The notes beneath the pieces are model-generated. The model saw only the letters and a program-made list of their open reading frames with translations, had not been told where the DNA came from and did no database searches. Position numbers and translations under genes: made by a program. From Dictyostelium discoideum (lineage: Eukaryota), in assembly GCA_000004695.1 (NCBI GenBank), contig CM000150.2, forward strand, positions 2,592,001-2,656,000: a stretch of 64,000 nt of DNA. Reading direction: 5' to 3'. Positions 3,518-62,559 of this stretch are shown one piece after another; within the stretch, counting starts at the first letter, position 1, and each line of letters opens with the position of its first letter.

Positions 3518-14541
<11,024 letters not shown>

Positions 14542-20481: not shown

Positions 20482-23400
20482 TTAGACAACATTTTTTAAG
20501 AAACAACCTTCAAAAGCTAAACCAGGACCAAAGGCTAAAGAGATTGAATAAGTTGGTAATGATTTTGATTTTCTTGCATGATCCATTACAAAGATAACGG
20601 AAGCACTTGACATATTGCCATATGCATGATATACATCCCAAGTGTTTTTAGTTTGTTTTGGATCAATACCTAAACTATTTTCGATATTCATTAAAATTGA
20701 TTTACCACCAGTATGAATTAAAAATTCACAATCTTTTGCTGAAATAGCAGTGGAGGTTTGTAATTTAGCTTTGTCCAATAGGGTATCTACGAAAGCTTCA
20801 ATACCTGAACCGATTACAATTGGAATGGAAGCATCTAAACCTAAATTCCAACCTTCTTTTTCAAGGTCCCAAACCATAGCATTTTCAGTGTTTGGAAAGG
20901 AACGATTGATTGAACACATTACTTCATAGAGTGGTGTTTCTTCAATTCTTGGATTACAACCAATGATATAAGCGGCAGAACCATCTGCAAAGATTGAACT
21001 TGCAACCATTTGATCACCACCATCAGTATTTGAGAAATGTAATGAACAAACTTCAGTACAAACCACCAAGATACGATTACGTGGTGATGCTTTTGCCAAT
21101 GAAGCAGCGGTTCTTAAACTTGAAAGACCAGCGAGACAGCCCATTAAATTTAAACTTACTCTTTCTACATCTTTATTTAAACCTAAAAGGTCGATTAACT
21201 TGAAATTAACATCTGGTATGATAATACCAGTTGATGTAACAGATACGATGTGAGTGATATCACCTTTGTCACCACCCCAATCTTTGAGGGCACGTAAACA
21301 TGCTTGTTGAGCTAGATCTGGTACAACTTTCTTGAATTGATTATTTACATCGGTTATTGTTTCCAAATGACGGAATTTGATAGAGTTTTCTGGTTTTGTA
21401 TAATCTCTAACCAAATGACGGGTTTTAATTTGTGATTGTTCAAAGATTCTCTTAACTTTTTCATTGGTCTCAGCTTTGTCAGAGAAATCATTCGATATGG
21501 AGTCTTTCAATGATTGTTGAGAAATTGGTTCACCTGGTACTGATATACCAATACCCAAAACGAATGAATTATTATTGGATTTATATGAGAGTCTTGATAA
21601 TGGTTGTTGTTGTTGTTGAATTACTTGAACTTTTTGTTGTTGTTTTTGATGTTGTTGTACACTTTGAATTGGTGGTGTGTTAATTAATGATGAATTCTTT
21701 GTATTGTTTAAACTTTTAATTGGTGGAGTTTTCAATACATCTGATTGTGATAGTGATGGTGTCGAAGGGGTAATTATTGATTCTGTAATTTGATTAAACT
21801 TATTAAGAATTGGAGTTCTAATTAAACTTTCACGTTTTGGCTTATTAATTCTAATATCTGGTGAAATTATAATATGTTGATGTTCTTTTAATAATAATGG
21901 TTGTTGATCTTTATCTAAAGTAACAATTTCTTCTTTTACTATTGATGGTGATGATTTAACATTACTATTATTATTATTATTATTATTAGTTGATAAACCA
22001 TTAACTTTTTCAAGGAAAGAATTAATTGAAATAGTTGCTAATTGAATATGGGTGAATAAATTCTTTTCAAATTCTTTGTCAATCCATGATTTAAATTGAA
22101 CGGTTAATAATGAATCAAGACCATAATGTTTTAAAGGATGATCAAAATTAATTTTAGAGATTGGAATTGATAATAAATCAGAAACTTTTGAAGTAATTTT
22201 ATCTTGTAATGATATGTTTGAACTTGCTTTGGTTGAATCATTTATAATTGATGATTGTTGTTTTGAAATTGTTGGTTGAAGATGTAATAATTTTGGACGC
22301 ATAGTTGAAAATGATTCAATATAAGTTTTAAAATCAATTGGAGAGCAAATTAATTGACTTGGAATTACATGATTTGATGGGTTATTAATAACAACTTCTA
22401 ATAAACCAAATAATTTATTCAAAGATAATGATGGTAAACCACGACTTTTGAATAGTTTTTTAATGGATTTATTGGTTGAAACTTTACCTTCATCCTTCAT
22501 TGGACCTAAATTAATAGAGAATGATGGTAATCCCATGAATCTACGGAAATTTGAAAGTGCATCTAAAATACTATTGGCTGAATTGTAAATTGATTGATCG
22601 GGATAACCAGTGATGGCAGTAATTGAACTAAATAATACGAAATGATTTAATTTCCAACCAAATGAAACACTAATTCTATGAAGATTAACAGCGCCCAATA
22701 CCTTTGGATTATGAACTGATTCAACGGTTGACATTGTAACTTGATCCATTGGTACATCATTATAAATTGCAGCTAAATGGAAAACCGATGTAATTGGTGG
22801 TAAATCGGATGGTAATTGCTTGATTGCCTCCGATAAGGCATCGTAGTTTGAAATATCAACTTGAACATAGTTAAAGTGAATACCAAATCCTGATACGAAA
22901 TGACTTATCATGGTTTGTAATTTCCATTTCATTGTTGATTTTGAAATGATTACAACATTCTTAACATTACCACCAGATTTACTTAATAACCAATTCAATA
23001 ATGGGATTGATAAACCACTTTGACCAGTAATCAATAAAGTTGAATTTAAATTTAATTGATAGTTTGGTTTTGGTAATCTCATTGAAAAGTTTGTAATTAC
23101 ATCACCAACTGGATTACATTTTGAAATATCTGTACAATCTACAACAACCTTACCAATATGTGATCTCTTTGATAGGAGTTCGATTGCATCTTTAGTTTCA
23201 GTAGATGGGAAAATTGTAATTGGAATCTTTTCAAGGCTACCATTTACAATGGAATTGGTAATTCTTTGAAGAATTGATTGAAGAAGTTTTGGTTTCTCAT
23301 CAATTAATCTCTCTAAATCGACTGCTGAATAAAGATGATCAAATTTAAAGTTACCTAAACCAATTTGTTGATTTGCATAAACATGAGTTGCTGATAAATC

Positions 23401-26400
23401 AATGAGTCTTCCAAAAGATCTTAAAGATTTGAAATTTGATTCAACAAATTCACCTGATAAGGTATTTAAAATAACATCAATCTTTGATTCTAATTGATTT
23501 GAATATTCTTTATCTCTTGTACTAAAAATATTTTCACCATCTTCTTTGAAAAGATTATTAAAATTATCAATTAAAAATTTCTTCTTTTCATTTGATCCAA
23601 CTGTTGCGTAAACATTTGTTAATGGTTGTTGTTGTTGATTTTTCATTTTCAATAGATTTAATGATGCTAAACCAACACCACCAGTTGCTGAATGAATTAA
23701 AATGCTTTCTTCATTTGATAATTGACCAATGTTGAATAAACTATACCATGCAGTACAATAAACTACCGGAATTGAGGCAGCTTCAGAGAAAGAGATTGTA
23801 TCAGGTTTTAAGATTACAAGATCCTTGTTGGTAACAACATGTGAACCTAAACTATGACGAGCAAATCCAAAAACATTTTGACCAACTGAATATTCAGTAA
23901 CATTTGAACCGATTCTAGTGATAACACCACTACATTCTAAACCATATGGTGGATTATAGATATCACCCATTCTAAAGATTTCTTGTGGTAATAAACCTTT
24001 GTAAAATAGATTATCTTTGAAATTAATACCAACGCATTCTACTTTAATTTCAATTTGATTTTCAGTTAGCATTGATTGTTTAATTGCATATTTATATGAT
24101 AAATCTGATGATGCTTTACAATATAAATTTGAAGAATCAGTTTCAAATGCATTTGAACTCTCTAATAATTGTTTATTCTTGAAAATTCTAGAAACAAACA
24201 TTAATCCCTTCTTAAAGATGAATTCATTATCAGAGAATTTACTATTTGAAAATATTGGTTTCAATAATGATTGGAGTGAATAATCATTTGTATCCAAATC
24301 AATTGATGTAATTGATAAATTTGGATATTCATTCATTGATGTTCTTGAAATACCAATTAAAGATCTAGAATAGAATGATCTAGAAATTCTTTCACTTTGT
24401 TTTGTAATTAATAATACCTTTGGTGGTTTTTTATCATTTGATGATGATGCTGTTGTTGAAATCAAATTTAATAATTTAACATATTCAAATGATTGTTCTT
24501 GATAATTATTTTCTAATAAATCATATCCTAATAAACAAAATACTAATAAAGATTTTTGAATTTTCTCTAAAACTGAATTTGTAGAATTTAAAACATCCTT
24601 TGAATCAATAATTTCGATGGTTTTACAAAGTGATGTTGCCTCTTGAATATATTCAATAACCTTTGGGTATGATTTCATATTAGTTAATTGTTGACTATTT
24701 AAAACAATTACAATTGAACCAGATGATAAACCATTATTAATTGTAGTTGCTAATTTCATTTGTGAAATTGATTCTTTTTGACAATGTAAAATAAATGAAT
24801 GAGAATCTACATCTTTTTCACCACCAATAAATGATACATTTGAAAATCCACCATAACAATTTGATGATGATGATGATTCATTATTTAAAGATTGATTTAA
24901 TAATAATTGGTTCCATTGTGATTCTGATAATGAACAATGAGTAGTTCTAATATCATCATAGTAATTCCACCATTGATTGAAACAACCAAAAACTAAATCA
25001 CTAAAGACAACATTTGATTTAGGTTCAATACATAATAACCAACCTCTTGGTGATAATAATTTATAAAGTTGTTCAATACTGAATTTAATATTTGAAACTG
25101 CATGAATTACATAAGCCATTAAAACAATATCATAATCACCCATTAAGAAATCTGAACTATTGATGATTTCTTTTTCTAAATCCAACACAGAGAATTTAAA
25201 TGTAACATTTGGATAAAGGTTACACATTGTCTCTTGAATTTCACCAATGATAAAGTTTGCTGAAATATCTGTAAATGTATATTCGATTATTATATTATAA
25301 CCGCTACCACCATTACTATTTAATGTTGATAAGTAAGTATTTAATTTTGTTAAAACAACATTTGAAAGTGAACCAGTACCAGCACCAATTTCTAAAATTC
25401 TAAAAACTCTTTTCTCTCTAACTATTGGTCTAATTGATTCTAACACCATTTCAGAGACCCTTTCCAAGTAGAAACGAGTTGAATTTGAATTTGAATAGAA
25501 TCTAGTTAATAGATTATCTTGAAACAATGTCATTGATGATTGTTTATCATTTTCAAATAACAATTTTGGAATAATCATTGAAACTTTTTCAATTACTTCA
25601 AATTCTAAAAGTTGAACTTCACTTGGATACTTTAATTCAATGATTTCTTTTAATTCTTTTAATTCCTTTTCATTCAATATCTTTGGATATTGTTTAATGA
25701 TTGAAATAATTCTTGTAAAGAATCTAAGATATTCTTTTGAAATTGATAATGATTCCATAAGTTGGTCATCATTTAAATGATTCTCCAATGAATTGATATC
25801 GAATGATTGTTGATTTTTATATTTTTCATGATTAATTAATTCTTTATGAATTATTGAAGAACAATATTGTTCAAATTGAATGTCCTTAAGAATGGTTGAT
25901 CTAATGAACGATGGATTTGAATTTAATGGTGATTGTTGTTGAATTTGTTGTGGTGTTGGAATTGGTGAATCTTTTGATTGCCATTCAATTGAAAATGTTT
26001 CATCCAATGGAGATTCAATTGTTTCATTTGTTTTTGTTGATTTTGGATTAGTTGATTTAATTATAAATTTACCAATTGATAAAATTAAACTACCATCTTT
26101 TGTAAATAATTTACATGTACCTTCTGATGAGAATGAAGTTGCCTTTGAAATTGTAGTATAAAGGTAGAATTGAACATTACCAACTGATGTTTGATTAAAT
26201 GAACCAATATTTTCGAGATAGATTGAAACTGATGAAATACTTTCAACAACAAATGAACCTTTTTCATTAATTAAAGTTAATAAACCATGGAAACAATTAT
26301 CTAAAAGGCATGGATTTAAAATTGTTGTAAATAAAGTATCCTCTGGTAATGAAAGTGTTGCAAATGAACAATCTTTACCAGTTTCAATGGTATCAACCAC

Positions 26401-29400
26401 TTGGAAGAGTGAATTATATTGTAATCCAAGATTCTTTGAAATCTTATCATACAATTCAAATTTGTCAAGTTTTGAAATGTCACAACGATTTCTAAGTATT
26501 TGTAAATCTTGTTTCTTTGATAAAGTTAATGTTGATGATGGTGATGGTTGTTGTTGTTCTAATGAAATGGTTGCTTTACAAGTATTTGTCCAAGTTTCAT
26601 CACTCATTGATTTAACTTTTGATTGATCTTCAACAGTATCCTTTATGAAAAAGTTTACAGAGAATGCTGACTTTTTAGTAACAATTGGTTCAAATGATGA
26701 TTGTAGAGTTTGTAATTTATTCTCAGTTAAATGAATTGGGTTTAAGAATTGAATTTTATCAACATTGATTATATATGAGTTTGAACTATCTGATGAATTC
26801 AATTGTTGTTTTTGATAATCAAAGAATTCAATTATTATATCTAAATAACCAGCACCTGGGAATACTGGTTTACCATTTACTAAATGATCTAATAAATATT
26901 TGTAATTATCTGATTGTAAATCTAAAACACTTTGAAATACTGGGAATGAATAAATGATTCTGTGACCAAGCAATGAAGTTGTTGGACCCTCTAATCTATT
27001 CTTTCTTGAAATTAATGGTTCACTCCAATATTCATCTTGTTCCCATTGATATCTTGGTAAAGAATTTGTTGTCTCTTTAAATGAATTTTGTTTAACATTA
27101 TTCAAATGATGATCATTATTAACATTGTCACAAATTGAATTTAATTGAAAATTGAAATCAACATTTACACCATTGAAGTATAATTGAGAAACAAATTTTT
27201 TATATGAATTGTTTGAATTCTCTTTTCTATTCAATGGGCAAAGTACTGATGAAGAATTCTTGTTTGATGATGGAATTGATTTTTTAATTAAACTAAATAA
27301 AGTTGGATGTGGAGCAATTTCAACATAAATGACCTTTTGATTGGATGGATAATGTGATTTGATATATGATGTTATACTTTCGATTGTTTTTTGAAATAAA
27401 ACTGGTTCTCTAACATTATCATAGATATGTTGGGCTGTAACATGACCACTCAAGACTTGTCTACCAGTTACTGTTGAGAATAATGGAATTTCAGTTTCAC
27501 CAGTTGATTGTAAATTTGAAAGTTCTTCAAACATTGAACCTTTGATAACTTCTTGGTGACTACTATGGAATGAACATGGTGATCTTAAGAATGTATTAAA
27601 GATTTGATTCGATTCATCGGATAACTTAATTGACAATTCTTTTAATCTTTCTTCATTACCTGTGACAACGATTGAATCTGGTGCATTGTAACAAGCGATT
27701 TCGATATCTGACCATTCGGCGCTAAATTGATCATTCCATTGTTTAAAACCCATTGAAACCACTAACATTTTACCTGATCCCATTGTTTTATTTTGATTTG
27801 AACTTCTTACATATACTATTTTACAAGCGGTCTCTAAACTAATAATACCCGATAAATAGTAAGATGATACTTCACCAAAACTATGACCAACTGAAATTGA
27901 TGGATAAATACCCCAATATTTGAATAATTCAACTAAACCAATTTGTAATAAAAACAATGATGGTTGTGCAACAATTGGATGATTAATTGAATCATCATTA
28001 TCATCAATCTTTGATAATACATTTAAAATTGAATAACCAAAGTATTTATATAAAATTGAATCTACATGATCAACTGTATTCTTGAATACATTTTCGCTAT
28101 TATATAATGTTTTAATCATTCCATTCCATTGTGGTCCTTGTCCACAAAATACAAATACTAATAATGGTTCAATATCATTTATAGTTGATGTAGTAGTTGT
28201 ATTGATTTGATTTGCGCTATCAATACCGCGATTACTACTACTACTACCACCTTCGCCATCTTTACTTTCGATTAAATTATGAAACTCATTTGATCCCTTT
28301 ATAAAGGAATTCCAATCGTTTGCAATTGTAGTCATTCTATTTGATAAATTATATTGTTTAGATTTAATTTGAAATTTTACAAAATCATCAAATGAAATAT
28401 CTTTATGATAATTTGAATTCGTCTTTATCAAAATTAAATATTTATCTAATGATTTTTTAGTTTTACTTGAAATTGGTATTAAATAATCTATATTATTATT
28501 ATTATTATTATTGTTATTACTAAAAAATAAATAATGTTAATGGTTGAACTTTTAAATATAACTTTTTTTTAAAATTTTAAAAAATTACTTACCAAATTGT
28601 TGAATTATTTTTAAAATTATTATTATATTCTTGAATTATTAAATGACAGTTTGAACCTCCAAATCCAAAACTATTAATTCCAATATTTACCAATTTATCG
28701 GTTGGAAATTGTCTAATTTCTCTAATTACAGAGATATTATATTGATCGAATGGAATTGATGGATTTAAATTTGAACAATTAATTGATGGAACTAACATAC
28801 GATTTTTAAGCATTAAACAACATTTAATTAATGATGCAATTCCAGCAGCTGATTCTAAATGACCAATATTTGATTTAAATGATCCAATTAATAATGGTTC
28901 TGGTGAGGTATTATCGTCATCGTCGTCGTCGTTGTCGTTACCATCAGTGGAAAAATTATTTAATTGATTATTGTTTGAATTGCTAAATATTTTTGATAAA
29001 GCTTTAACTTCAATTGGATCACCAACTGGTGTACCTGTACCATGAGCCTCAATGTAATATATATCGGATGGTGACAAGGACGCTTTCTCCATTGCTTTTG
29101 AGATATTAATTGATTGAGCTTCACAAGATGGAGTAGTTAAACTATTCTTATCACCATTGGAAGCGCCGTCTTCATTGGAAGAAACTCCTTTAATTACGCC
29201 ATATATTCTATCACCGTCGAGTTTAGCTTGTTCCAATGATTTCAAAACAACAACACCGGCACCTTCTGAACGTACATAACCCGAAGCTTGATCAGAGAAT
29301 GAATTGCAACGGCCATTTTCACTTAATACACCTAATTTACTGAATGCCACACTTGTTGATGGATCAAAGAGTGCATTTACACCACCGCAAATTGCAATTT

Positions 29401-30117
29401 TACACTCACCCATTTGAATCGATTGAACACCTAAATTTACCGAAACTAATGAAGATGAGCATGCTGTATCAACGGTTATTGAAGGTCCACGGAAATCGAA
29501 ACAGTATGAAATACGATTTGAATTTAATGATGAATTTGAACCCGTCATTGTGTAAGGTGATATTGAATAGTTATCTTGAAAACCTAACTTTGTATAATCA
29601 TTATTAGAAACACCAATAAAAACACCAGTATTTGAACCACGTAATTCATCTGGACGAATATATGCATCTTCTAATGATTCCCAAACAATTGATAATAATA
29701 ACCTTTGTTGTGGATCAATAAATGGTGCTTCTCTTTTTTTTTTTTTTTTTTTTTTTTTATAAATTTTAAAATAATAAGTTGGAAAAATAAAAAAATAAAA
29801 AAAAATTAATATTTTAACCCAATAAAAAAATAAAAAAAAAAAATGACTTACTTTGGACCAATTCCAAAAAATAAAGGATCAAAATTTTTCCATTCTGAAT
29901 CTTTTAAAAAACCACCAAATTTATTTTTGATTAATCCCATTTCTCTAAAAGATGTAGCCCATCTCTCTTTTGGAACTTGAGTAATAGCATCAAAGCCATC
30001 TAATAAATTATTCCATAATGACTCTGGATCGTTTGAGTTACCTGGAAATCTAAAACCAACTCCAATTACTGCTACATCTGAAGAGTTTGGTGATTGGATT
30101 TTTGAATTTTTATTCAT
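20482..30117 (-). CDS. stlA: Hybrid polyketide synthase 'Steely': a FAS-like type I PKS (KS-AT-DH-MT-ER-KR-ACP) fused to a C-terminal type III (chalcone-synthase-like) PKS. Three exons: 29852..30117, 28593..29732 and 20482..28510. About 3144 aa.
   Basis: KS active site DTACSSSL and EAHGTGTPVGDPIE. AT motif GHSFGE. Methyltransferase motif LEIGAGTGS. ER motif HSATGGVG. ACP motif GLDSLL. C-terminal type III PKS motifs: MGCLAGLSSL (catalytic Cys), IHTGGKSI and GNMSSASV. Minus-strand GTAAGT donors at 29851 and 28592, and ag acceptors at 29733 and 28511. The summed CDS is 9435 nt = 3145 codons, in phase. The length fits the reported Steely1 (3147 aa) better than Steely2. The neighbouring rab7 also points to the chromosome-1 copy. 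Assignment to stlA rather than stlB is by recall, not alignment. Confidence 0.85.
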
Positions 30118-38345: not shown

Positions 38346-38811
38346 TAATCAATTTAAAAAAAAAAAAAAAAATAAAAAAAATTAAAAAAATAAAAAAAAT
38401 AAAAACAAGATCGTACAATTGTAAATATATAATATATAATAAATTAGGGAAAAACTATAGTAATTTTAATTTTTTAATTTTTTAATTTTTTTTATTTATT
38501 TTTTTTTATTTTTTTTTTTTTTTTTTTTTTTTGGAAAAGCAATCAAAAGATCAAAAAACCATTTTTTATTATATTATTTTTATTTTTATTTTTTTTTTTT
38601 TTTGATTAAATTATTTTTTTTATTTTTTTAATTTTGCGAAAAAAAAAAAAAAAAAAAAAAATGAAACTCAATTTCATTTTATATTTTTAGAGAACAATAA
38701 ACTTCAAAAACATTTATTGTTTTTGTTTTTCCAAAAACATTAAAACACACCACATCAACATAGACCCCCCCTCCACTTCTCCCATAACACAAAATATAAA
38801 AATTAAAGAAG

Positions 38812-39796
38812 ATGTCAATTAAAACGCTAACATTATATAATTTTAATACCAGTTATTCATTTGGTAAAGAGGAGAAAAAAGAAAAAGAACAATCACTTAC
38901 ATCAAAATTAGCACGTTTAAAAGATTCTTATGAAAAAGAAGGATTAAGAAAAGCAGTAGAGGGTATCATTATTATTCATGATCATGGTCATCCTCATATA
39001 TTACTTTTACAAGATAATAATTATTTTAAATTGTATGTATATTTTTACAAAAAATAAAATCTATAAATAATTCAATTCAATTCAATTTATAATTATACTA
39101 ACCATATATGGTTAACATATATATATATATATATAGACCGGGAGGTAAACTTAAACCAGGAGAAAATGAAATTGATGGACTTATAAGAAAATTAACAAAA
39201 AAACTATCACCAACAGGTACTCCTGTATCAGATGCACCTTGGGAGGTATGATAATTTATTTTATTATTTTTTAATTTTTACTACTATCATTTTTATACTA
39301 ATATTTTTTAATTTAATTTAATTTAATTTAATTTATTTAATTTATTTAATTTTTAAAGATTGGTGATCATGTTTCAACATGGTGGAGACCAAATTTTGAA
39401 CCATCCCTTGTATGTATAATTTACTTTTTTTTTTTTTTAAACCCCAAATTTAAGATTAATAAGAAAATCTAATTTTCGTTTTTTTATTATTTTTTTTATA
39501 GTTTCCATATATTCCTTCTCATATAACTAAACCAAAAGAATGTAAAAAACTATTTGTTGTTACCCTTCCTGAAAAATGTAAGTAAAAAAAAAAAAACAAT
39601 ATTTAAGTTTTGGTTACTAATTTACATCATCATTAATATGAAAAAAATAGGTAAATTTGCTGTTTCAAATAATTTAAGTTTAATTGCTGTGTCACTTTAT
39701 GAAATTTATAATAATTCTCAAAGATATGGTGCTGTAATTTCAAGTATTCCTGCACTCATTAGTAGATATACTTTCGTTTATCTCAATGTAGATTAG
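38812..39796 (+). CDS. Cleavage factor Im 25 kDa subunit (CPSF5/NUDT21), Nudix fold, about 200 aa in five exons: 38812..39032, 39137..39245, 39359..39409, 39502..39577 and 39651..39796.
   Basis: Spliced product ..LYNFNTSYSFGKEE...GLRKAVEGIIIIHDHGHPHILLLQDNNYFKLPGGKLKPGENEIDGLIRKLTKKL...[90 protein letters not shown] matches human NUDT21 almost motif for motif (LYPLTNYTFGTKE...[30 protein letters not shown]...[28 protein letters not shown]). All junctions are GT..AG and in phase. Confidence 0.85.
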
Positions 39797-40260
39797 ATAT
39801 AACCAAAAAAAAAAATAAAAAAATAAAAAATGATAAAAAATAAAAATAATAAAAATATATATATATAAAAAACAACAGAATGAATGTAATCATTCTGTTT
39901 TTTGATTTTTTTTTTTTAAGTGTCAAATTTAAATGTTTTTATTGTCAATAAAATATTATTTTCACCTTTTTTTTTTTTATTGATAAAAACACCTAAATTT
40001 TTATTTTTAATATTTTAGTAAATTGGATTTATTTTTACTTTGAAATAAAATAAAATGAAGTAAAAAATAATTTAATTTATGATCGTTTTATGATTTTTCA
40101 TTGTGTGTGTTTAAAAATCAAAAAACATTTTGGTTGTAAATTTTTTTTTTTTTTTTTTTTTTTTTTCAATTTTTTTTTATTTTTTTTTTATTTTTTATTT
40201 TTTTTATATTTTTTTTTTTTTCATTCATTTTTATTCCTTCACACACAATATATATCGAAA

Positions 40261-40988
<728 letters not shown>

Positions 40989-41519
40989 AAATAATAACAA
41001 TAGTAATAATAATAACAATAATTAATAATAATAATATACTTTAAATACAAACAATCGCACGATAAGATTGTAAAAGGAAAAAAAGAATCAAATCACGAAA
41101 AAAAAAAAAAAAAAAAACAAATCACGTTATCAAGAACCATATACTACTTTTTTAATATAAACGTAGAAAGAAAACTAAAAACCTAAAAAAAAAACAAATA
41201 AAAAAATATAAAATTGTAAAAACAAAATTAAAAAAAAATAAAAAAAAATATCTAATTATATGTTTACAATAATCTTGGGGAAAAAAAAAAAAAAAAAAAA
41301 AGGAAAAAGAAAATGTTACTTAAACTAAAAATTTTTTTTTATTTTTTATTTTTTTTTTTTTTAATATTTAAATGTAGTCTTTTTTTAATCCTTTTCATTT
41401 TACCTGTTTCTTCTTTTTTTTTTTTCTTTTTTTTTTTTTTCCTGATTTGTTTTTTTTTTTTTTTTTTTTTTCTTTTCCTGACTTGTTTTTTTTTATTTTT
41501 TTTTTTTTATTAAATTAAT

Positions 41520-42450
41520 TTAACCAGAGAAAGAAATTGAACTTCTAATTTCAGTTTTTGGTAAAAAACGGATTAAATTTAATTTTTGGTCAAATTGACA
41601 AATTTCTTTTAAATTTTTATCCAAATTATTTTCAATATGACTGAGTATTGATTTATTATTTCTGTCACCAACTAAAGCAGTTTTCATATCGACATAAATT
41701 TCTTTAACTTCATTTTCCTCATCCAAATGTTTAATTACCCAACAGAATGGATGATTTTGACTAAATTGAACTAAAAATCTTACTGCTATATTATTATTAT
41801 TATTATTATTTACTCCACCATTTGTAGGTGATGGTGTTAATAATAACTCTTTTACTTTTTCATTTGTAATAAATAAAAATATCATTCCTAAATTCCAAAG
41901 ATCCATTGCATTCTTTTGATATTTAATAACTTTAAAAACTGGTGATAAAATTGAAATAAATGAATCAAATTCTTCATTTGTAATTTTATTTTCTTTTTTT
42001 TTTTTTATTATTATTATTAAAATTAATTAATATTAGTAAAAGTGGAAAAAAAGTGGGAAAAAAAAAAAAAGATAATATTTACCAGCAATTTGATTTAATA
42101 AATTTTGTAAAGGTTCATTTGGTAATAATTGATATTGTTGAACTAAATTTTTTCTAATATTTAAACAAATTGGAAAGAATTTTTGAAGTGTTTTAATAAC
42201 ACGATGATGAGTAACTTGATTAAATAAATATGGTTGTTTTTCTTGTTTTTCTTGTTTTTGTTTTTGTTGTTCTTGCTCTTGTTGTTGTTGTTGTTGCTGT
42301 TGTTGAAGCTTATCAGCATCCTCTAATGATAATGAATGTAAACTATGAGTGTTGCTGTTATTTTCTTGATTGTTTGATATTAATAATGGTACAGTGTCTT
42401 TATACTATTTATTTTTTTAAAAAAAAAATAATAGATTAGTTTATAATTAT

Positions 42451-42490
<40 letters not shown>

Positions 42491-42876
42491 ATTGACAAAA
42501 CTTACTAAAAATATTTCATCTTTTAATAATTGACAAAAATGATCAACCCATTGGGAATCATTTGCAAATACTATGAATCTCTCAGAGTAATTTGTTTCAA
42601 TTGTAAATTGTTCTTTGGTGATTTTATGAATTAAGCAAATTGAAAATTTCAATGAAGAAAATTGTGTTGTTGCTTTTACACATTTTAATGCTGTCTTACC
42701 GCTATATTTATTATTCTCAATTGGGAATAAATCAAATGTATGATGTTCAAATAAATCTGATTTTTCATTATTACTTAAACTTAATGGTGATGTATTTCCA
42801 TTATTATTATTATCATTTTCATTATTTCCATTCTGTATATTATTATTATTGTTATTATTATTACTATTACTATTAC

Positions 42877-42970
<94 letters not shown>

Positions 42971-44041
42971 GTTTATATTATTATTTATATTATTACTATT
43001 ATCGATACTATTTAAATTACCTATATTATTATTATTATTATTATTGTTTATATTATTATTTATATTATTATTTATATTATTTACATTATTATTTATATTA
43101 CTATTTATATTATTATTATTATTTATATTATTATTATCATTTTCATTTGAATGGTTCGGTGATAAAGAAGTATTTATAATATTATTTGTAATTGGTATAA
43201 TTGTACTATTTTGACCAATACTATTGATAGTTTGAGCAGAAGAATGTACTTTTAATTTTGAATAAGTGTATGGAAAGTTTGAAGTTGTGAGCATTTCAAT
43301 TATTAATTCATCAGGTTGCATTTGTTTATGTCTTTTAAGCATACCAGGGAATGGTTGTCTAGCAAATACCAATACTGCACTAGAATTACCATCGATAAGA
43401 TCTAAAGATGAATTGAAATCTTTTGGAGATGTTGTTGAGAATCCAATTGAAAATCGGTCCAATTCTTTCAATAAAATTGATAAATGTTTTGAAAGGTTAT
43501 GTAAATCTAATAATTTCAATTGTAATGAATGTGTAATAACAAATTCGAATCCAGTGACTAATTGAATTATTGAATCCCATAATGTTTTTATAATTGTAAT
43601 GGTTTGAGTTATCTCTTGAATAAGTAATGCACAAACTTGTGTAATATGTTGTGACTGTTGTTCAAATATAAATTCAGTTGGAAAATCTGAATCAATTAAT
43701 TTACTATTATTATTATTATTATTTTCATTTTTGTCTAATTGTTGTTGTTGTTGTTGTTGCTGTTGTTGTTTCTCTTCATATTCTTTCATTTGATTTTTTA
43801 AACTTATACCTTGTAAAATTAATCTATTTTGTTTTGCAATAAAATTTGAACATAATAATTTTAACTCTTTTGATTTTTTACTATAATAGTCATGTTCTTC
43901 TTTCATGAAACCATCAATTGTAATTGCAGATGATTGCTCCGATAATAATTGTTTTTGTTTTATTTCTGATTGAATTCTATGTTTGGCAAGTTCTTCAACC
44001 AATAATAATGGTTGAAGTTGTTGTAGTAATTCATCTGACAT
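41520..44041 (-). CDS. STAT-family transcription factor of about 776 aa in three exons: 42506..44041, 42083..42404 and 41520..41992. It has an N-terminal coiled coil, a STAT DNA-binding core, a ~115-residue poly-Asn tract, polyQ, and a C-terminal SH2 domain.
   Basis: The ORF-track entries 42485..44041 and 41520..41906 are one gene. The first reads through a GTAAGT donor (..KDEIFL|gtaagt) into a stop. Splicing to the aaatag acceptor at 42405 continues in phase (YKDTVPLLISNNQENN...). A second intron runs from GCTG|GTAAAT to aaaaag|AAAATAAAATT. STAT DNA-binding motif LVFARQPFPGM (compare FVVERQPCMP). SH2 region LWNLGMIFLFITNEKVKELLLTPSP...AVRFLVQFSQNHPFCWVIKHLDE (compare LWNDG.IMGFISKERERALL...GTFLLRFSES...FTWV). 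It is possibly dstD on chromosome 1, but the paralogue was not assigned. Confidence 0.7.
42849..43180 (-). repeat. Coding (AAT)n/(AAC) trinucleotide array of about 330 nt that encodes the poly-Asn tract of the STAT gene.
   Basis: Direct reading. The same array gives spurious polyY/polyL/polyI ORFs in the other frames and on the other strand. Confidence 0.85.
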
Positions 44042-44556
44042 TTTATAATAATAATAATATATAAATATTTTTTTATGTAAAAAAATAAAAATATATATAT
44101 CTCTAAATGTGAGAAATTAAAAATAAAAAAAAAATGTAAAAAAAGAAAAAAAAAAAAAATTTTCTCTCACCCCCTATGAGACCAAAAACCCGAAAAAAAA
44201 AAAACCATTTTTTTAATAAAAAATAAAAATAAAAAAAAATAAAAAAAAATAATCTTATTAAAATAAATAAAAAAAAAATACTATTATAGGAATTTTGAGA
44301 TCTTATTTAGTTAATTATAAAATAAAATAATAATTTTTAAAAAAAAAAAAAAAAAAACATTAATTAAAAAAAAAAAAAAAAAAAATATCCTAATCAAAAA
44401 AAAACATTAATTAAAAAAAAAAAAAAAATTTAATAATAAAAAATTAAAATTATTTTTAGTTTAAACAATATTCCTTTTTTTTTTTTTTTTTGGAATATAT
44501 AATGAAATCAAGATATATTTTTAGTAATAGTTTTAGTTTAATCAAAATAATAATAG

Positions 44557-44607
<51 letters not shown>

Positions 44608-44801
44608 AAAAATAAATAAAATTTATTTACTCACAGAAAAAAAACGAGCTTTTTAAAAAAGTTTTCGTTTTGTCATTTTTTTTTTTTAATTTATTTTTAT
44701 TTTTAATTTTTTATTTATTATCATCTCTCAATTGAAAAAAAAAAAAAAAATTTATTATTATTATTTTATTATTAATAAATAATAAATAATAAATAATAAA
44801 T

Positions 44802-45126
44802 ATGGCAGTTAGTAAAAATATAAAATCAAATGTTTCTACACATGTAACAAAGAAAGCAACTAAAAAAACTACAAATAATGGTGAAGAATCAAAAACTGTT
44901 AAAAAAGCAGTCAATAATAAATTATTATCTGATGAAATCAATGAAATTTTACATAGTTCAGAGAATATAAAGAAATCAATTGATCCAGAATCCATGGATT
45001 ATTTTGGTGATTCAGCAAAAGTATCGAAATCTGATGAAAATTTTGGTGAAATTGAAGATGATAAGTATGTACATATTTTTCCCTTTTTTTTTTTATAAAA
45101 ATTATAATTAGCTAATTATTTATTAC

Positions 45127-45223
<97 letters not shown>

Positions 45224-45727
45224 GTCGAGGTACAAGATTAAAGGGTGATATTCCAACAGAATTCACATCTGGTAAATATTCAGGTAAAAAATCATCAAGA
45301 AAAGATAATGATATGGAAGAAGATGATGAACTTGATCAAGATAATGAATATGATATTTTTGGTGGTGATAAACAAGATGATGATGATGGTGATGATGACA
45401 ACAGTGAGGATTTAGATGATGCTTTTGATTTTCAAGATAAACAAGATGATGATGATGATGATGATGACAAAGAAGATGATGATGAAGATGATGATGATGA
45501 TGAAAATGTTGTAGTATCATCAAATATTGATAGAGCTGATATGTTATTTAAAAAATTACAAAAACAAGAAAAGGAAGAAGAAAAACAACCAAAATTAGTT
45601 GGTCACACAAATGAAGCTGATGAAATGGAAAAAGCTCAAAATACAAAGAATCAAACTGTAAATAATATATTATTTTATTTATTTATTCATTTATTTATTT
45701 ATTGAATTATTTAATTGACTCAATTTA

Positions 45728-45808
<81 letters not shown>

Positions 45809-46688
45809 TTAGGCATTATATAATGAATTTTTAACAACTAGAATTTTATTACAAAAAACTATAAATTGTGCAAATAAATTACCAAAACCAAAAATATATA
45901 AAGAATTTTTAGAATTAAATGATGAATCATTACAAAAGAAATTTAAAGAAACTAAAACAGCATCATGTTTATTAATATCAGAATTATATAATCTTCAATC
46001 TGAATTGATTGATTTAAATGATGAAATTCCAAAACAACAACAATCAAAGAAAAGAATTAGACCAGATCAAAGTTTATCAGAGATTTGGAATACCATTGAA
46101 GAACAAAATCAAAGATTAGATCAATTTCATAATCAAACAATTACAAAATGGAATAATAGAATTAGCGTTACTTCTTCAATCAATAGTGGTGGTAAAGGTG
46201 GAAATAATTTGAAATCACTTAATCAATCAATTTTATCACAAATTCAAAATACATTAAATGATTTTGAAAGATTACAAAAAAGAACAAAATTAAAGAGAAC
46301 TACATATAGAATTATAGGCGAGAAGCAACAACAACTATCAAGTGCAAATAGTATTGACCAAAATGAAGAAGAAAAAGATGAATATGATGATGAGATTTTC
46401 GATGATACAGATTTCTATCAAACTTTATTAAAAGATTTAGAGGCTAATAATAGTGAAGAGAATGAAGTTGGTTCACAATATTGGATTGAAATGAGAAATT
46501 TAAAAAAGAAAAAGAAGAAGAAGGTTAATCAAAAAGCATCAAAGGGTAGAATCCTTCGTTATGAAGTTTTCCCAAAACTTGAAAATTTTATGACACCACA
46601 ATCATTACCAATCCCTGATTGGAATATTGATCAACTTTATCAAAATTTATTTGGTGGTTTAGGAAATGTTAATATTAATTTAAATTAG
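44802..46688 (+). CDS. AATF/Che-1/Traube (yeast Bfr2) homologue with an acidic N-terminus, in three exons: 44802..45064, 45225..45657 and 45813..46688.
   Basis: The C-terminal region [69 protein letters not shown]....LYQNLFGG matches the human AATF TRAUB domain (EIFDDDDFYHQLLRELIE...[21 protein letters not shown]...LYRSLFG). Asp/Glu runs are encoded by GAT/GAA repeats. Both introns are pure (ATT)n/(TTA)n with GTATGT and GTAAAT donors. Phases were checked. Confidence 0.75.
45121..45221. repeat. (ATT)n microsatellite of about 33 units, intron 1 of the AATF homologue.
   Basis: Direct reading. Confidence 0.9.
45721..45806. repeat. (TTA)n microsatellite of about 28 units, intron 2 of the AATF homologue.
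   Basis: Direct reading. Confidence 0.9.
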
Positions 46689-46838
46689 AGATTTAATTAA
46701 AATAAAAAAAAATAAAATAAATAAAAATAAAATAAAATAATAAAAAAAAAAAATCAATTGCTTATTTAATTTTTTTTTTGATTTTTGATTTTTTAATTGT
46801 TTTTTTTTTTTTTTAGGATGTATCAAATAAATAAAAAG

Positions 46839-50576: not shown

Positions 50577-51428
50577 TTAATTTTTGATTGGATTATATTC
50601 ATTAATAATATCTTTCCAATTTTTTAAATTATAATCAAAAAGTTGATTTGATTTTGGGTGAGGATTTAATAAGAATTGTTCAGCTTCTTCTAAAGTTACT
50701 TCCTTTATTGATGGTGATGTTGGTAAATTATTTATAGTTTTTAAAAGGTTATTAATTATATGATCTTTGGATTGATATCTATCTTTTAATTTACAGAGGA
50801 ATGAAAGGTGGTCTCTATTTTGACGATATTCAGGTATTTTATCAGGCTGTTTCAAACAAGCCATCATATGATCATCTTTAAAATCATATAGAAATGAGGT
50901 ATGATGTAAAAATTTATGTTTTGAAAATGATTGTGCATTACCTCCAAATTTTTGTTTACCAAATGCATAATCGTTCTCTTGTAATCTAAAATCTAATTGT
51001 TCTTGAAAAACATGTTTATAAAATGAATTTGCTGACCAATTCATTATATCTTTTGGATAAATATTACCAACATTAATACTTGTGGTGGTAGTTTCTGTTG
51101 TTGTTGTTGTTGTTGTTGATGACATGGTTGGAAATAATTGTTTTAATGTTTCAAATTCGAATAAAATTGAAGTAAATAATGTGTTTTCATCAGCAACTAC
51201 TGTACCACCACCAGAAAAACGTTTCATTGTTTGAATACCTCTAGATTCGACTTCATCTAAATTCACCAATTTATCAGCTTTGCCTGTGGCTCCAACAATT
51301 ACTATTGGTTCTGGTGTACCATTATTTATAATTATCCAATTACCTGAATTTGGTGTTCTATATAAAGCTTCTTCAATTTGAAGTTGTTTTAAAATTGGAA
51401 ATCTATTTAATCGTAATAATCTAATCAT
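50577..51428 (-). CDS. Lipoate-protein ligase / lipoyltransferase, LplA/LIPT1 family (BPL/LPL catalytic domain), 283 aa, single exon.
   Basis: Family signature MKRFSGGGTVVADENTLF (compare LplA RRSSGGGAVFHD and LIPT1 RRNSGGGTVYHD). The upstream LRLNRFPILKQLQIEEALY...NWIIINNG...IVIVGATGK resembles the LplA N-terminal fold. A poly-Thr insert is present. Confidence 0.65.
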   Translation of the reverse strand: MIRLLRLNRFPILKQLQIEEALYRTPNSGNWIIINNGTPEPIVIVGATGKADKLVNLDEVESRGIQTMKRFSGGGTVVADENTLFTSILFEFETLKQLFPTMSSTTTTTTTETTTTSINVGNIYPKDIMNWSANSFYKHVFQEQLDFRLQENDYAFGKQKFGGNAQSFSKHKFLHHTSFLYDFKDDHMMACLKQPDKIPEYRQNRDHLSFLCKLKDRYQSKDHIINNLLKTINNLPTSPSIKEVTLEEAEQFLLNPHPKSNQLFDYNLKNWKDIINEYNPIKN

Positions 51429-53713: not shown

Positions 53714-56700
53714 TTATTTAAAAGAATTACCTTTTTTATTTGATTTATTTTGATTAGCATGTGAAAAAGCGAAACCAGTATTAACTTTATCATGTCTTAT
53801 TGATTTCATCCAAGTTAAGAATTTAATTCTCTTCTTTTTTCTTTTTTCTTGTTGTTGTGGAGATTCAACACCCATTTCTTCGATATCATTGGTCTTTGAA
53901 AATTTAGCCAAGTTTTCTTTACTCATAATATCGGATGGTTTACCATAGATTTTCTCGATTTCTTGAACGATTTGATAGTTGTAAGGTTTAACATCTCTTT
54001 GGATGTATTTGTAAATGACGTCGGGTGCCAAACAAATGGTTGGTAGCACAGCTATTGATAACCAGAATGATGGACTTGCAAATATTTTATAGGCAACATA
54101 ATAGATATCACCACTTGAAGTTGAACCAATACCTGGAATTGCAGCTAAAACTGCTACCCAAGCGAACCAAATTAAAATGGAAGCCCAAATTGAGAAATGA
54201 GTAATCCAAGTCCAATAACGAGTTTCAAATGCCAACTTAAAGTTTACGGTTATAACCACGAGAATGAAAATATTTTGACCCATTGCCCAAAGGTCCAAAG
54301 TGTCACCAGATTCCAATAAAGTACTACCATGACTGTAGAGACCATAAACACCAAAGAAAATAACCACTGAATGAATCCAAGCTTCAACGATCCAAACCCA
54401 AAGTACACGTAAATTGAATTCACTATCTTTTTGACCACTTGCATATAGTTGAGGATATTTTTGTGATGATTCAGCAGAGACATCTTGATCAAAGATAGCA
54501 CAAACAATAATTGGAAGACCAGTGAAAACTACATTGAAAATTGAAATGGACCAAGAATCAAACATTGTTTGAGCAGAGAAGGAATTGTAAATACCAAACC
54601 AAAATTGTGTCATTGCAAACACCATATTCTTGTAGAAACAATATAACATAAGTTTACTATTTCTCTTGTAATCCCAACGACCATGTACAACCAATAAACG
54701 ATAGAGGAAACTAAATTGTGCAATCGAATAATCGGATGCCATAACTGCTTGCATACCCTCATGACCACTAATACCAATACCAATGTGAGCTGCTTGAATC
54801 ATAGAAACATCGTTTGCACCATCACCAATTGCCAATGTAACGGCACGTAATGTATCACGAACCATTTTAACAACTTGAGCTTTTTGAAGTGGAGTGGTAC
54901 GACAACAAATAACAGATTTACAATTGGCAGCCAATTCAAGGAAAACCGATTTCAATTCGCCTTCCAAGGCAAAGTTTAGACATGAACCTTCGACAACCAA
55001 TGCAAAGCCAGAGTTTTGATGATTTTCGGCATCATCACTAAAGTAAGCATCGATAGCACCTTGAATTTGATTGTGTACATCCTCTTGATTACTACCATTC
55101 AAAATGATAATCCTCATATCCGATGTTAAAAGATGACATGAGAAACCAATGTTGATGGCAGTTTCTTGTTTATCACCAGTGAGTACCCAAATTTTAATGT
55201 TTGCTTTAATGAGATTTGCAATTGCTTGTGGTACACCCTCTTGAAGTTTATCTTCAATAGCGGTTGAACCAATCAGACTGAGATTACGTTCAATCAATTC
55301 ACTAACTTTGTCAACTTTCATATCACGATCTTGAATGGAGATTGCAGCTTCTTTGTAGAGTTCATTCCATTGTTGATAATCTTCCTCCTCGAGGTAAGTG
55401 TAGGCAAGACATAAAGTTCTAAGACCATCTGCAGCAAAATCTTGAAGAAACTCTAGTGTGATTGAATAAAGTTCCTCTTGATCCTTTCTAAGTAATGGAA
55501 GTACGGTGGTATCAGCACCTTTACAATAGAGTATGATACGACCTTGTGGATTACGACAAATGACAGACATTCTCTTACGATCACTATTAAATTCTAAAAC
55601 GTTTAAAACTTCGAATCTTTCAATCTTTCCACGAATATTTACAAGACAACCGGTTGGATCACGATTATAGAAAGCATAACCCAAATTCTTTGCAGCGGAA
55701 ACCAAGGCAGCCTCATCGGGTGAAGAAGCTTCATAAATGATTTCAGAGTCATCTTTATTTGGACGATCAGGTACGACGGAATGACAAACAGCCAACAAAG
55801 TGAGGAATTCATTGATGAGGAAAGATTGTTCGGAATTTTTATCCTCATCCAAGTGAGTGATTATACGACGATCCTTAAAGCCAAACTTTGGATCGGCACC
55901 AACTATACCCTCCATTGCGATACCATATGGTTTATTTGAGGAGGCATCATCTTCTCTTTCGACATTACCATAGACCATTTTACCAACAGAACATTTCAAG
56001 AAATCCATTTGATTTCTAGTGAGTGTACCAGTTTTATCAGAGAAAATGTATTCGATTTGACCCAACTCTTCACTGAGATTACTTGTACGAGTACGTGCTG
56101 GTGTATTTGTTTCAGGATCATACATTTTCACATCCCAACCCACATAAACGGCTTGAGCAACCTTTACCAACTCCAAAGAGACATACAAAGAAATTGGAAT
56201 CATAACTGCGAAAGCAATCATAAATGAAAAGAGATTGAGAACTGCTTTACGTACATCTTTTTGTTCGAAATCCAAATACCATTGTTTATCGATATTGGTG
56301 CTGGTGAGAATGACACTAACAATCATACCAACTACACAAACCACAAACATAATAATGAAAAGATTGATGAGTGCTCTATTGACCAACTTTTCCAAAGTAC
56401 TTCTTTTCGATGGAGCATCGGTTGAATTTTGCATCAATTTGGTATCCTCACCAGTGTAAACCACTGCACCATAAATCCATTCCGTATTTCTAAGGACACA
56501 ACCTCTTAACAATGTTTGTGTATTATTCAATGGATGCTTTTGGCTATCGTCGGTCATTTGAATTGCACCATTGTAAACGTAAATGACATTGTTTGGATGT
56601 TCACATTCTATATTACCTCTGAAATGCGCTAAATCCTCTTCGGATCTTAAAATTTCAAATGTTTGTGGAATGGCTTGACGTTGTTTCAAATTGGTTTCAC

Positions 56701-61184: not shown

Positions 61185-62559
61185 TTATTTTAACATAAAA
61201 GCTTCAATTTCATCAATAGTTCTTGGTAAATTTTTTGAAAGATTATCACAACCAGTTTCAGTGACTAAAATATCATCTTCAATACGTACACCACCAATGT
61301 TACGATATTTATCTAATTCGGTGAGATTAAAGAATTTGGCAGTTTCAGGATTTGATAAAGCTTGAGTGAGTAAATGATTGATGAAATAGCAACCAGGTTC
61401 AGAAGTGATGACCATACCAGCTTTGAGGGTACGAGTAGTTCTGAGTGAATGAACTTTTGGTTGACAATCACCTAAATAACCACCTACATCATGTGTATCC
61501 AAACCAAGGAAGTGACCTAAACCATGTGGGAAGAAAACTGAACCAATTTTATTGGCAATTAGATCTTGAAGGTCACCAACCAAAATTCCAGCTTTCAATA
61601 AGGCAGCTAAAATACAACGTTCAGCCAATTTATGCATATCTACCCAAGAAACGCCTGGTCTCATTGCTTCCATAACGGCTACTGAAGCATCCAATACGGC
61701 TTGATAGACAACTCTTTGTTCTGGACTGAATTTACCGGTGGCAGGGAAAGAACAGGTGATATCGGCGGTATAGCTATGATATTCAGCACCCATATCGAAT
61801 AAACAGAAACCATTCTCACTGATGGTGGCAGAGTTTGGTTCACCTGCATGACCATAATGGAGGACGGCAGAGTTCTTATTGGCGGCACAAATACAAGTAT
61901 AACCAACATTTCTACAACCCCATTCATTGTAAACATGATGAAGGAACTCACTTTCACATTGGTACTCCTTTAAGCCAACCTTGACTTTACGCATGACATG
62001 TTTATGTGCAGAAACGGAAGCATCGACACAATAACGAATTACCTCAACCTCCTTTGGTGATTTAATTACACGACATTCGGCAATCTCTGGGAATAATAAA
62101 GTATTGTTTACATTGAAAGTCTCTCTTAAACCTGGATATTGTGGTTCTACAAATGTTGAGCCACTATCGGTGTTGGTACCCAAGATGGTGTAGATTGTGG
62201 ATGCGTTCTTACTCTTTAAGTAATCCATCATCTCATCGACATATAATACTTGGTCGACTAAAAAGATCGATTTATAGTATTCTTTTGAACGAATTTCTCC
62301 CATCCATGTTGCATATTCAGCTGGCAATTTTGGAATACATAAAATACTAGTTGCTTGTTCATCCAATCCAACAATACCAAAACAATCTGGAATATCTGAA
62401 CCAAATGTCCAAAAAAAGTATCTTTCTTGTTTAAATAATGGTTCATGATCTGTATCATATTGCATTGTTGATTTACCACTTTCTAATAAAATAAATGAAT
62501 TTTCTTTAACTTGATCTTTATCTTTTTTTTAAATTTTTTTTTTTTTTTTATTAATATAT

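Follow-up and report, generated by a model that had tools for sequence, protein, structure and literature searches.

A STAT-like gene of Dictyostelium discoideum that appears to have lost the phosphotyrosine switch

The gene described here lies in a 64,000-nucleotide (nt) stretch of the Dictyostelium discoideum genome (contig CM000150.2, positions 2,592,001 to 2,656,000 of the forward strand). This whole stretch is termed the window and positions are counted from its first letter. Positions 41520..44041, on the minus strand, carry what appears to be an intact three-exon gene belonging to a fifth dictyostelid clade of the STAT family, distinct from STATa, STATb, STATc and STATd. The protein appears to be without the phosphotyrosine switch of the family, and it is most likely a phosphotyrosine-independent “pseudo-STAT”. 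This reading is given a probability of roughly 0.8.

Gene structure and orthologues

The gene and its parts are as follows.

41520..44041, minus strand: STAT-like gene, three exons and two GT..AG introns, spliced product of 776 amino acids (aa)
42506..44041, minus strand: exon 1, codons 1–512, start ATG at 44041..44039, 3′ end ..KDEIFL in phase 0, donor GTAAGT
42405..42505, minus strand: intron 1, 101 nt, GTAAGT...ATAG, 7% GC
42083..42404, minus strand: exon 2, 322 nt, residues 513–619 plus 1 nt (phase 1 3′ end), linker with a Gln-rich insertion, donor GTAAAT
41993..42082, minus strand: intron 2, 90 nt, GTAAAT...AAAG, 12% GC, phase 1
41520..41992, minus strand: exon 3, end of the linker and SH2-like domain, stop TAA at 41522..41520

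Exon 1 encodes a coiled coil, a DNA-binding barrel with an Asn-rich loop, and the first linker helix. The GC content of the exons is 21%–26%, versus the 7% and 12% of the introns, and intron 1 contains a perfect 34-nt homopolymer at 42453-42486 (A on the coding strand). The window as a whole displays the signature of a dictyostelid genome, i.e. 24% GC, long repeats encoding Asn and Gln, and short, very AT-rich introns.

An earlier note on this DNA had described a STAT gene “hidden as two ORFs” (open reading frames), of which the first, 42485..44041, was said to end inside an intron after ..KDEIFL/GTAAGT, with splicing to two downstream exons restoring the gene. The end of the frame inside the intron is confirmed, but it reads 6 sense codons (VSFVNY) and a stop into intron 1, and not 11 codons. 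The splicing is borne out: the sites are canonical, the reading frame is kept across both junctions, orthologues are collinear across them, and the junction coordinates are those proposed. The two listed frames do form one gene; their being “hidden” is a mere consequence of a prokaryote-style listing of open reading frames on eukaryotic DNA that contains introns.

Homology searches yielded four orthologues: D. purpureum DICPUDRAFT_100099 (accession XP_003294910, 670 aa), a dictyostelid sequence from EukProt (598 aa), Cavenderia fasciculata DFA_07334 (XP_004367196, 761 aa) and a Synstelium polycarpum protein (492 aa). The census was an exhaustive hidden Markov model (HMM) search of a database clustered at 50% identity, where further species may be hidden. 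The orthologues are collinear over almost the whole chain, the alignment beginning at the initiator MS[DS][ED]LLQQLQP and reaching the last few residues, with 46%–61% identity over the five species, and all stop within a few residues of a common endpoint. Every exon is homologous to the orthologues and to Dictyostelium STATa; D. purpureum and C. fasciculata exons map by tblastn onto positions 42081-42230, in exon 2. By the published dictyostelid classification, the five species span the group's deepest split.

The D. purpureum gene has its first intron (..EIFL|GTATGT) at the same position and phase as the window gene, and its second intron, ..ISG (TCAG)|GTAATT...ATAG|AAAAT, interrupts the same codon in the same phase. 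It stops at the equivalent place in an unrelated sequence context. Gene order is also shared between window positions 38800-46700 and D. purpureum contig GL871597: AATF/Che1 lies upstream, followed by the STAT-like gene, a small convergent gene downstream, and then a NUDIX_2 gene. The convergent neighbour, which matches the downstream gene of D. purpureum, is located as follows.

40345-40557 and 40803-40973, plus strand: exons of the convergent neighbour gene

A minus-strand open reading frame of 51 aa (40796-40951) is antisense to the second exon of this neighbour.

It is hardly credible that the two listed open reading frames represent two independent genes, the first ending at 42485 and the second (41906..41520) encoding a small SH2-like protein of 128 aa. 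A mechanical list does give them separately, and the 128-aa frame begins with an ATG. This start however corresponds to M649, one residue past the modelled beginning of the SH2-like domain (648), and the product would be without the linker that packs against that domain; the linker domain in turn is incomplete without exon 2. STATa is collinear across exons 1, 2 and 3, the D. purpureum and C. fasciculata orthologues are annotated as single proteins, and the splice sites are conserved as well as canonical. The same intron positions and phases, and the same neighbours in D. purpureum, are therefore taken to exclude two independent genes.

It should be noted that C. fasciculata DFA_07334 is annotated with an N-terminal Ras domain, which is joined across a gap of ~370 nt (5749 to 6120) and is found in none of the other four members of the clade. 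The C. fasciculata protein has a Met where the other orthologues start. The Ras plus STAT-like annotation probably arose because an automatic gene model joined two adjacent genes.

The STAT core and its Asn-rich loop

The predicted domains are listed below.

43442..44035, minus strand: four-helix coiled-coil domain, residues 3–200 (AlphaFold2 helices 3–34, 39–108, 122–164 and 171–200, Foldseek match to STAT cores)
42566..43378, minus strand: immunoglobulin-like STAT DNA-binding barrel, residues 222–269 and 439–492 (AlphaFold2 strands), including the LVFARQPFPGMLKRHKQ motif
42794..43186, minus strand: Asn-rich low-complexity tract, residues 286–416, (AAT)n with interspersed ATA/AGT
41532..41909, minus strand: SH2-like domain, residues 648–773 (profile alignments to STATa and STAT3, AlphaFold2, Foldseek)

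In phmmer the single protein matches Dictyostelium STATa (PDB 1uur) over three collinear segments, with E = 1.7e-5. With a clade profile the match strengthens to E = 2.5e-21, over a region that extends from the end of the coiled coil through the DNA-binding domain and linker into the SH2 domain; in the DNA-binding region the STATa alignment covers residues 222–254 and 448–511. Mammalian STAT3 and STAT1 are matched as well, at E of about 1e-3, when the profile covers the C-terminal 283 residues. The Pfam family PF18214 (STATa_Ig) is found in three orthologues above its gathering score (30.7–34.8 versus 26.6 bits). Pfam searches with the full-length window protein give noise only (PH, DDHD), as the barrel is interrupted by the Asn tract.

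The AlphaFold2 model has a predicted template modelling (TM) score (pTM) of 0.73 and a per-residue confidence (pLDDT) of at least 90 at 404 residues. It consists of a four-helix coiled coil (3–200, helices mostly at pLDDT >85), a beta-barrel (222–269 and 439–492), a helical linker (495–644) and an alpha/beta domain of SH2 type (648–773), in which alphaA is at 663–670, betaB at 690–696, betaC at 703–709 and betaD at 715–721. The coiled coil carries a Gln/Asn-rich stretch (residues 91–112) followed by a low-confidence loop (residues 109–121). A Foldseek search of the PDB with the model places STATa first (E about 1e-18, target-normalised TM score 0.71), then STAT5a, STAT6, STAT1, STAT3 and STAT2, and only then the tyrosine-kinase-binding (TKB) domains of Cbl. 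When, as a control, the C-terminal part was re-modelled from the five clade sequences alone, STATa was still the best match (1.6e-11). The STATa profile score and the Foldseek matches bear out the STAT architecture recognised in the earlier note, with coiled coil, DNA-binding core, linker and C-terminal SH2 domain. By descent the gene belongs to the STAT family, and its product has kept the full STAT core.

The earlier note also described an Asn run of about 115 residues, placed between the DNA-binding region and the SH2-proximal exon. There is indeed a very long Asn-rich stretch encoded by AAT, but it is not a homopolymer: 93 of its 131 residues are Asn (71%; 89 AAT and 4 AAC codons), the longest pure runs have 16 and 15 residues, and Tandem Repeats Finder describes a 57-copy array of period 6 at 42800-43141. 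The placement has to be changed, as the tract is inside the DNA-binding barrel, between the modelled strands 263–269 and 439–441, with segments that align to the STATa DNA-binding domain on both sides. It forms a disordered loop (pLDDT of about 30 across residues 274–425). At this point every orthologue carries a low-complexity insert that is shorter and unrelated. The tract is a variable surface loop of the barrel that has expanded in this species, which is ordinary for Dictyostelium, and it is not expected to matter for the mechanism. Two plus-strand open reading frames at 42640-43214 (a poly-Tyr frame of 179 aa and a poly-Leu frame of 121 aa) are not genes but result from reading the (AAT)n tract on its antisense strand.

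Phosphotyrosine pocket, C-terminal tail and possible function

The SH2 regions of 83 STAT-like proteins were aligned. Position betaB5 is Arg in 69 of the 83 and Leu in 5 (the STATb type), and is Gln in all five members of the clade and only there. Position alphaA2 is Arg or Lys in 77 of the 83; the clade has Asn (four members) or Gln (one), found nowhere else in the alignment. The betaD His of the motif KHYLV, which is 96% conserved among 49 canonical STATs in a second alignment, is Glu or Asp in all five. The corresponding residues of the window protein, identified from the alignments, are given below.

41864..41862, minus strand: N663, position alphaA2
41768..41766, minus strand: Q695 (codon CAA), position betaB5
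Minus strand: E717, position of the betaD His

In HMM alignments, Q695 is opposite the Arg of FIIRFSE in STATa and of FLLRFSES in STAT3, and N663 is opposite the Lys of FISKER in STAT3. By residue counting, their STAT3 counterparts are R609 and K591, which we take from structural work to be ligands of the phosphate.

The second half of the switch is the tyrosine of the tail. Most canonical relatives with a complete C-terminus display a G-Y-[D/E] (or G-Y-x) motif, typically 88–95 residues past betaB5. Clade members end 81–92 residues past betaB5 and have neither this motif nor any conserved Tyr; the chain stops about 10 residues before the position of the canonical G-Y-[D/E] tyrosine. The earlier note had seen no Tyr downstream of the SH2 domain and had proposed a search for it in alternative 3′ exons below 41520. 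The observation stands: the last Tyr of the window protein, Y719, is within the domain, in betaD (it is Leu, Ile or His in three orthologues), and the absence of a tail Tyr is conserved in five species. The search had the following region to cover.

40975..41519, no strand assigned: 3′ intergenic spacer, 545 bp, 15% GC, A/T homopolymers, extending to the 3′ end of the convergent neighbour

Three-frame translation of this spacer gives no open frame and no G-Y-[D/E] motif, and therefore there is no room for a tail-tyrosine exon. A hidden 3′ exon is ruled out, the spacer being non-coding up to the convergent neighbour.

The idea in the earlier note that activation would be atypical is thus supported, and extended by the finding that the SH2 pocket is disabled as well. 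With pocket residues of the Gln, Asn/Gln and Glu/Asp type and no tail tyrosine, the protein would form no reciprocal phosphotyrosine-SH2 dimer, whether as a homodimer or with STATa to STATd in the role of donor or of acceptor. Its mode of action would then most likely need no tyrosine phosphorylation, and the SH2-like domain would most likely be a structural element or a phospho-independent module for interactions.

A decaying duplicate, i.e. a pseudogene or functionless relic of a STAT gene in which the switch was merely lost, would likewise be without the tail and the residues that define function, and would fit the long branch in the tree described below and the large low-complexity expansion within a domain. 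This reading is very improbable. Reading frames are intact in five species, intron positions and synteny are conserved, and the fold is modelled with high confidence. There are ~140 invariant positions across four of the sequences, and ~90 across all five in the C-terminal 283 residues; these include SH2-like motifs specific to the clade, RFLxQFSxxHP..W and DMKxxLxGDRxNKS. The invariant positions and clade-specific motifs therefore suggest a protein that is under constraint and not a decaying copy.

The relation to the four described STATs (the earlier note had proposed a comparison with DstA-D) was examined by an exhaustive profile search. Four proteins match with E ≤ 1e-180, after which there is a gap to 1.9e-20 onward for 133 other STAT-like proteins; those looked up belong to the Amoebozoa, dictyostelids included. 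The five members stand on a long branch of their own in a rough neighbour-joining tree. A published survey found amoebozoan STATs by BLAST and assigned the dictyostelid ones to four clades, a to d (PMC4206453); XP_003294910 and XP_004367196 are absent from its list of amoebozoan STATs (Table 1). Other work counts four Dictyostelium STATs (PMC6873476), or thirteen SH2-domain proteins with four STATs among them (PMC2906285), and no paper in the library searched mentions the orthologue accessions. The UniProt automatic name of the C. fasciculata protein is “STATa immunoglobulin-like domain-containing protein”; databases have partly flagged it. Thus the gene is none of the four, and a conserved fifth STAT-fold paralogue has apparently gone unrecognised in the literature.

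There is next to no likelihood that the window gene is one of dstA to dstD with a tail missing through an incomplete gene model. The overall STAT architecture would fit, and Dictyostelium STATs are rich in Asn/Gln runs (PMC3670131). Against this, none of the published CRISPR guides for dstA, dstB, dstC and dstD matches the window at up to 3 mismatches, the orthologue accessions are missing from the published list, about 160 orders of magnitude in E-value separate the clade from all other proteins, and the betaB5 Gln is unique to it. Nor does an incomplete model fit a C-terminus that is conserved in five species and followed by 545 bp of non-coding sequence.

If the protein is a pseudo-STAT, two kinds of activity can be considered, and the conservation of the DNA-binding region bears on both. 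Positions at least 75% conserved in 49 canonical amoebozoan STATs were checked in the five clade members. The segment RQPFPG..K.R.K and the Asn-Gln-Trp (N494, Q497, W498) of “TNExQW” are invariant in the clade and common to canonical STATs, and “TNExQW” presumably includes an Asn that contacts DNA in STAT1 and STAT3 complexes. The barrel is also confidently modelled. There is about an even chance that the protein is a phosphorylation-independent DNA-binding regulator. Several other highly conserved positions of the DNA-binding domain and linker, however, are changed in all five members: the Arg of the “GTRK” loop is Thr or Ala and the Thr of “VITNE” is Ala, Asn or Val. In addition, linker residue N583 (100% conserved in canonical STATs) and the Trp residues of “FWxWFGK” are lost, and divergence is greatest in the linker, where 11 of 24 conserved positions are gone. 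These changes would fit a STAT-derived adaptor or scaffold that does not bind DNA and keeps the core only as a folded platform for protein-protein interactions. In view of the invariant DNA-binding residues and the well modelled barrel, this is possible but doubtful.

A more distant proposal, which we consider unlikely, is that the clade is an old, stably maintained STAT lineage with a different logic: the SH2-like domain may have been re-tooled for a ligand other than phosphotyrosine, or the clade may have branched off before STATs were coupled to tyrosine phosphorylation. A re-tooled domain would employ four basic residues that are invariant in the clade (exon 3, about 41780-41650): R691, at betaB1, where 82% of canonical STATs have Thr, and K723, R730 and K733 within DMKxxLxGDRxNKS. 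In a midpoint-rooted tree the clade is outside all other amoebozoan STATs, but long-branch attraction is the likelier cause of this position. In either case the clade would offer a natural system, accessible to genetics, for the study of STAT function that is obligately phosphotyrosine-independent.

Several points weigh against the pseudo-STAT interpretation. The loss of phosphotyrosine binding is deduced from residue identity, and R691, K723, R730 and K733 could form a substitute site. Dictyostelium STATb works with Leu at betaB5, and an aberrant pocket alone is thus no proof of inactivity (PMC2906285). Expression and the splice junctions are predicted from comparative evidence only. Pfam SH2 (PF00017) has no match in the window protein and none at threshold in any clade member (best E = 0.002–0.008, 16.8 versus 21 bits), and the domain calls therefore come from profile and fold comparison; PF18214 gives 21.3 bits in the window protein, below threshold, and only with low-complexity stretches removed. 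AlphaFold has seen STAT structures, and the fold match is thus not fully independent. As to novelty, the D. discoideum gene may already carry a database annotation.

Other genes of the window and comparison with known systems

The window contains a number of other recognisable genes.

149-1999: GRAM plus TBC RabGAP gene
4933-14541, plus strand: uninterrupted open reading frame of 3202 aa, its only Pfam match a laminin-type EGF repeat near the C-terminus
20482-29548, minus strand: Steely-type hybrid polyketide synthase, with ketosynthase (KS), acyltransferase (AT), dehydratase (DH), methyltransferase, enoylreductase (ER), ketoreductase (KR) and acyl carrier protein (ACP) domains and a C-terminal chalcone/stilbene synthase (type III polyketide synthase)
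50577-51428: lipoate-protein ligase-like gene
53714-56689: P4-type phospholipid flippase gene
61185-62465: M24 Xaa-Pro peptidase gene

The Steely-type gene is listed as two open reading frames (20482-28431 and 28589-29548), presumably split by an intron. Primers for D. discoideum stlB and chlA (PMC9489281) have no match to it, and it may be a gene of the stlA type. Scanning the window for Rfam families and tRNA genes gave no match.

Outside the metazoans, Dictyostelium is the principal model of STAT and SH2/phosphotyrosine signalling. A fifth STAT-fold protein with neither a phosphate-binding pocket nor a phospho-acceptor tyrosine would change the inventory of four STATs and thirteen SH2 proteins, and it shows that such censuses overlook SH2-derived domains scoring under the standard Pfam cut-offs. 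In practice the gain is modest, a further gene to knock out and tag in an organism where both are easy.

Four known systems can be compared with the window gene. The first is Dictyostelium STATa (PDB 1uur/1uus), the best match in sequence and fold and the closest solved relative. The domain order is the same (coiled coil, immunoglobulin-like DNA-binding barrel of the PF18214 type, EF-hand-like linker, SH2), and the motifs xQPFPxxxxKxKQ, the Asn-Gln-Trp of TNExQW and LWxxG are shared. Identity in structural alignments however is only about 12%–20%, and in the window protein the coiled coil is longer and the barrel contains a disordered loop of roughly 150 residues. At betaB5, STATa has Arg (FIIRFSE) where the window protein has Gln. 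In a close STATa homologue from Tieghemostelium (P0031), alphaA2 is Arg, betaD reads KHYLV and the C-terminus carries the phospho-acceptor GGYEPL, in contrast to Asn, Glu and no tail in the window protein.

STATb is the Dictyostelium precedent for a STAT SH2 domain without the betaB5 Arg (PMC2906285), and the STATb-like sequences of the present census have Leu there. They keep the alphaA2 Arg and the betaD KHYLV, and most also a G-Y-D-P-L tail, all of which the clade has lost. STATb-like proteins are on a different branch of the tree from the clade, and the loss of the Arg therefore appears to be independent of STATb.

The TKB region of Cbl (four-helix bundle, EF-hand and SH2) is the other known EF-hand/SH2 composite and the next-best fold match after the STATs, over the linker and SH2-like domain. 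This match is much weaker (E 1e-2 to 3e-4, TM score about 0.25). Cbl has no DNA-binding barrel and keeps its phosphotyrosine-binding Arg.

Metazoan STAT1, STAT3, STAT5 and STAT6 have the same four-domain fold (Foldseek E 1e-6 to 1e-9), and the SH2 region aligns to STAT3 and STAT1. The window protein has no N-domain and no transactivation domain, and metazoan STATs retain a working pocket (K591 and R609 of STAT3 align to N663 and Q695) and the tail Tyr. STAT cores can act without tyrosine phosphorylation, as in unphosphorylated STATs (U-STATs), and this mode is the nearest functional analogy for a pseudo-STAT. Metazoan STATs have further modes besides this one; the window protein would have no other. 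The clade may show, as an experiment of nature, which functions are open to a STAT core when tyrosine phosphorylation is absent, a question actively debated for the mammalian unphosphorylated STATs. As judged from its predicted product, the window gene lacks those defining features of a canonical phosphotyrosine-activated STAT that were examined, hence the terms “STAT-like” and “pseudo-STAT”.

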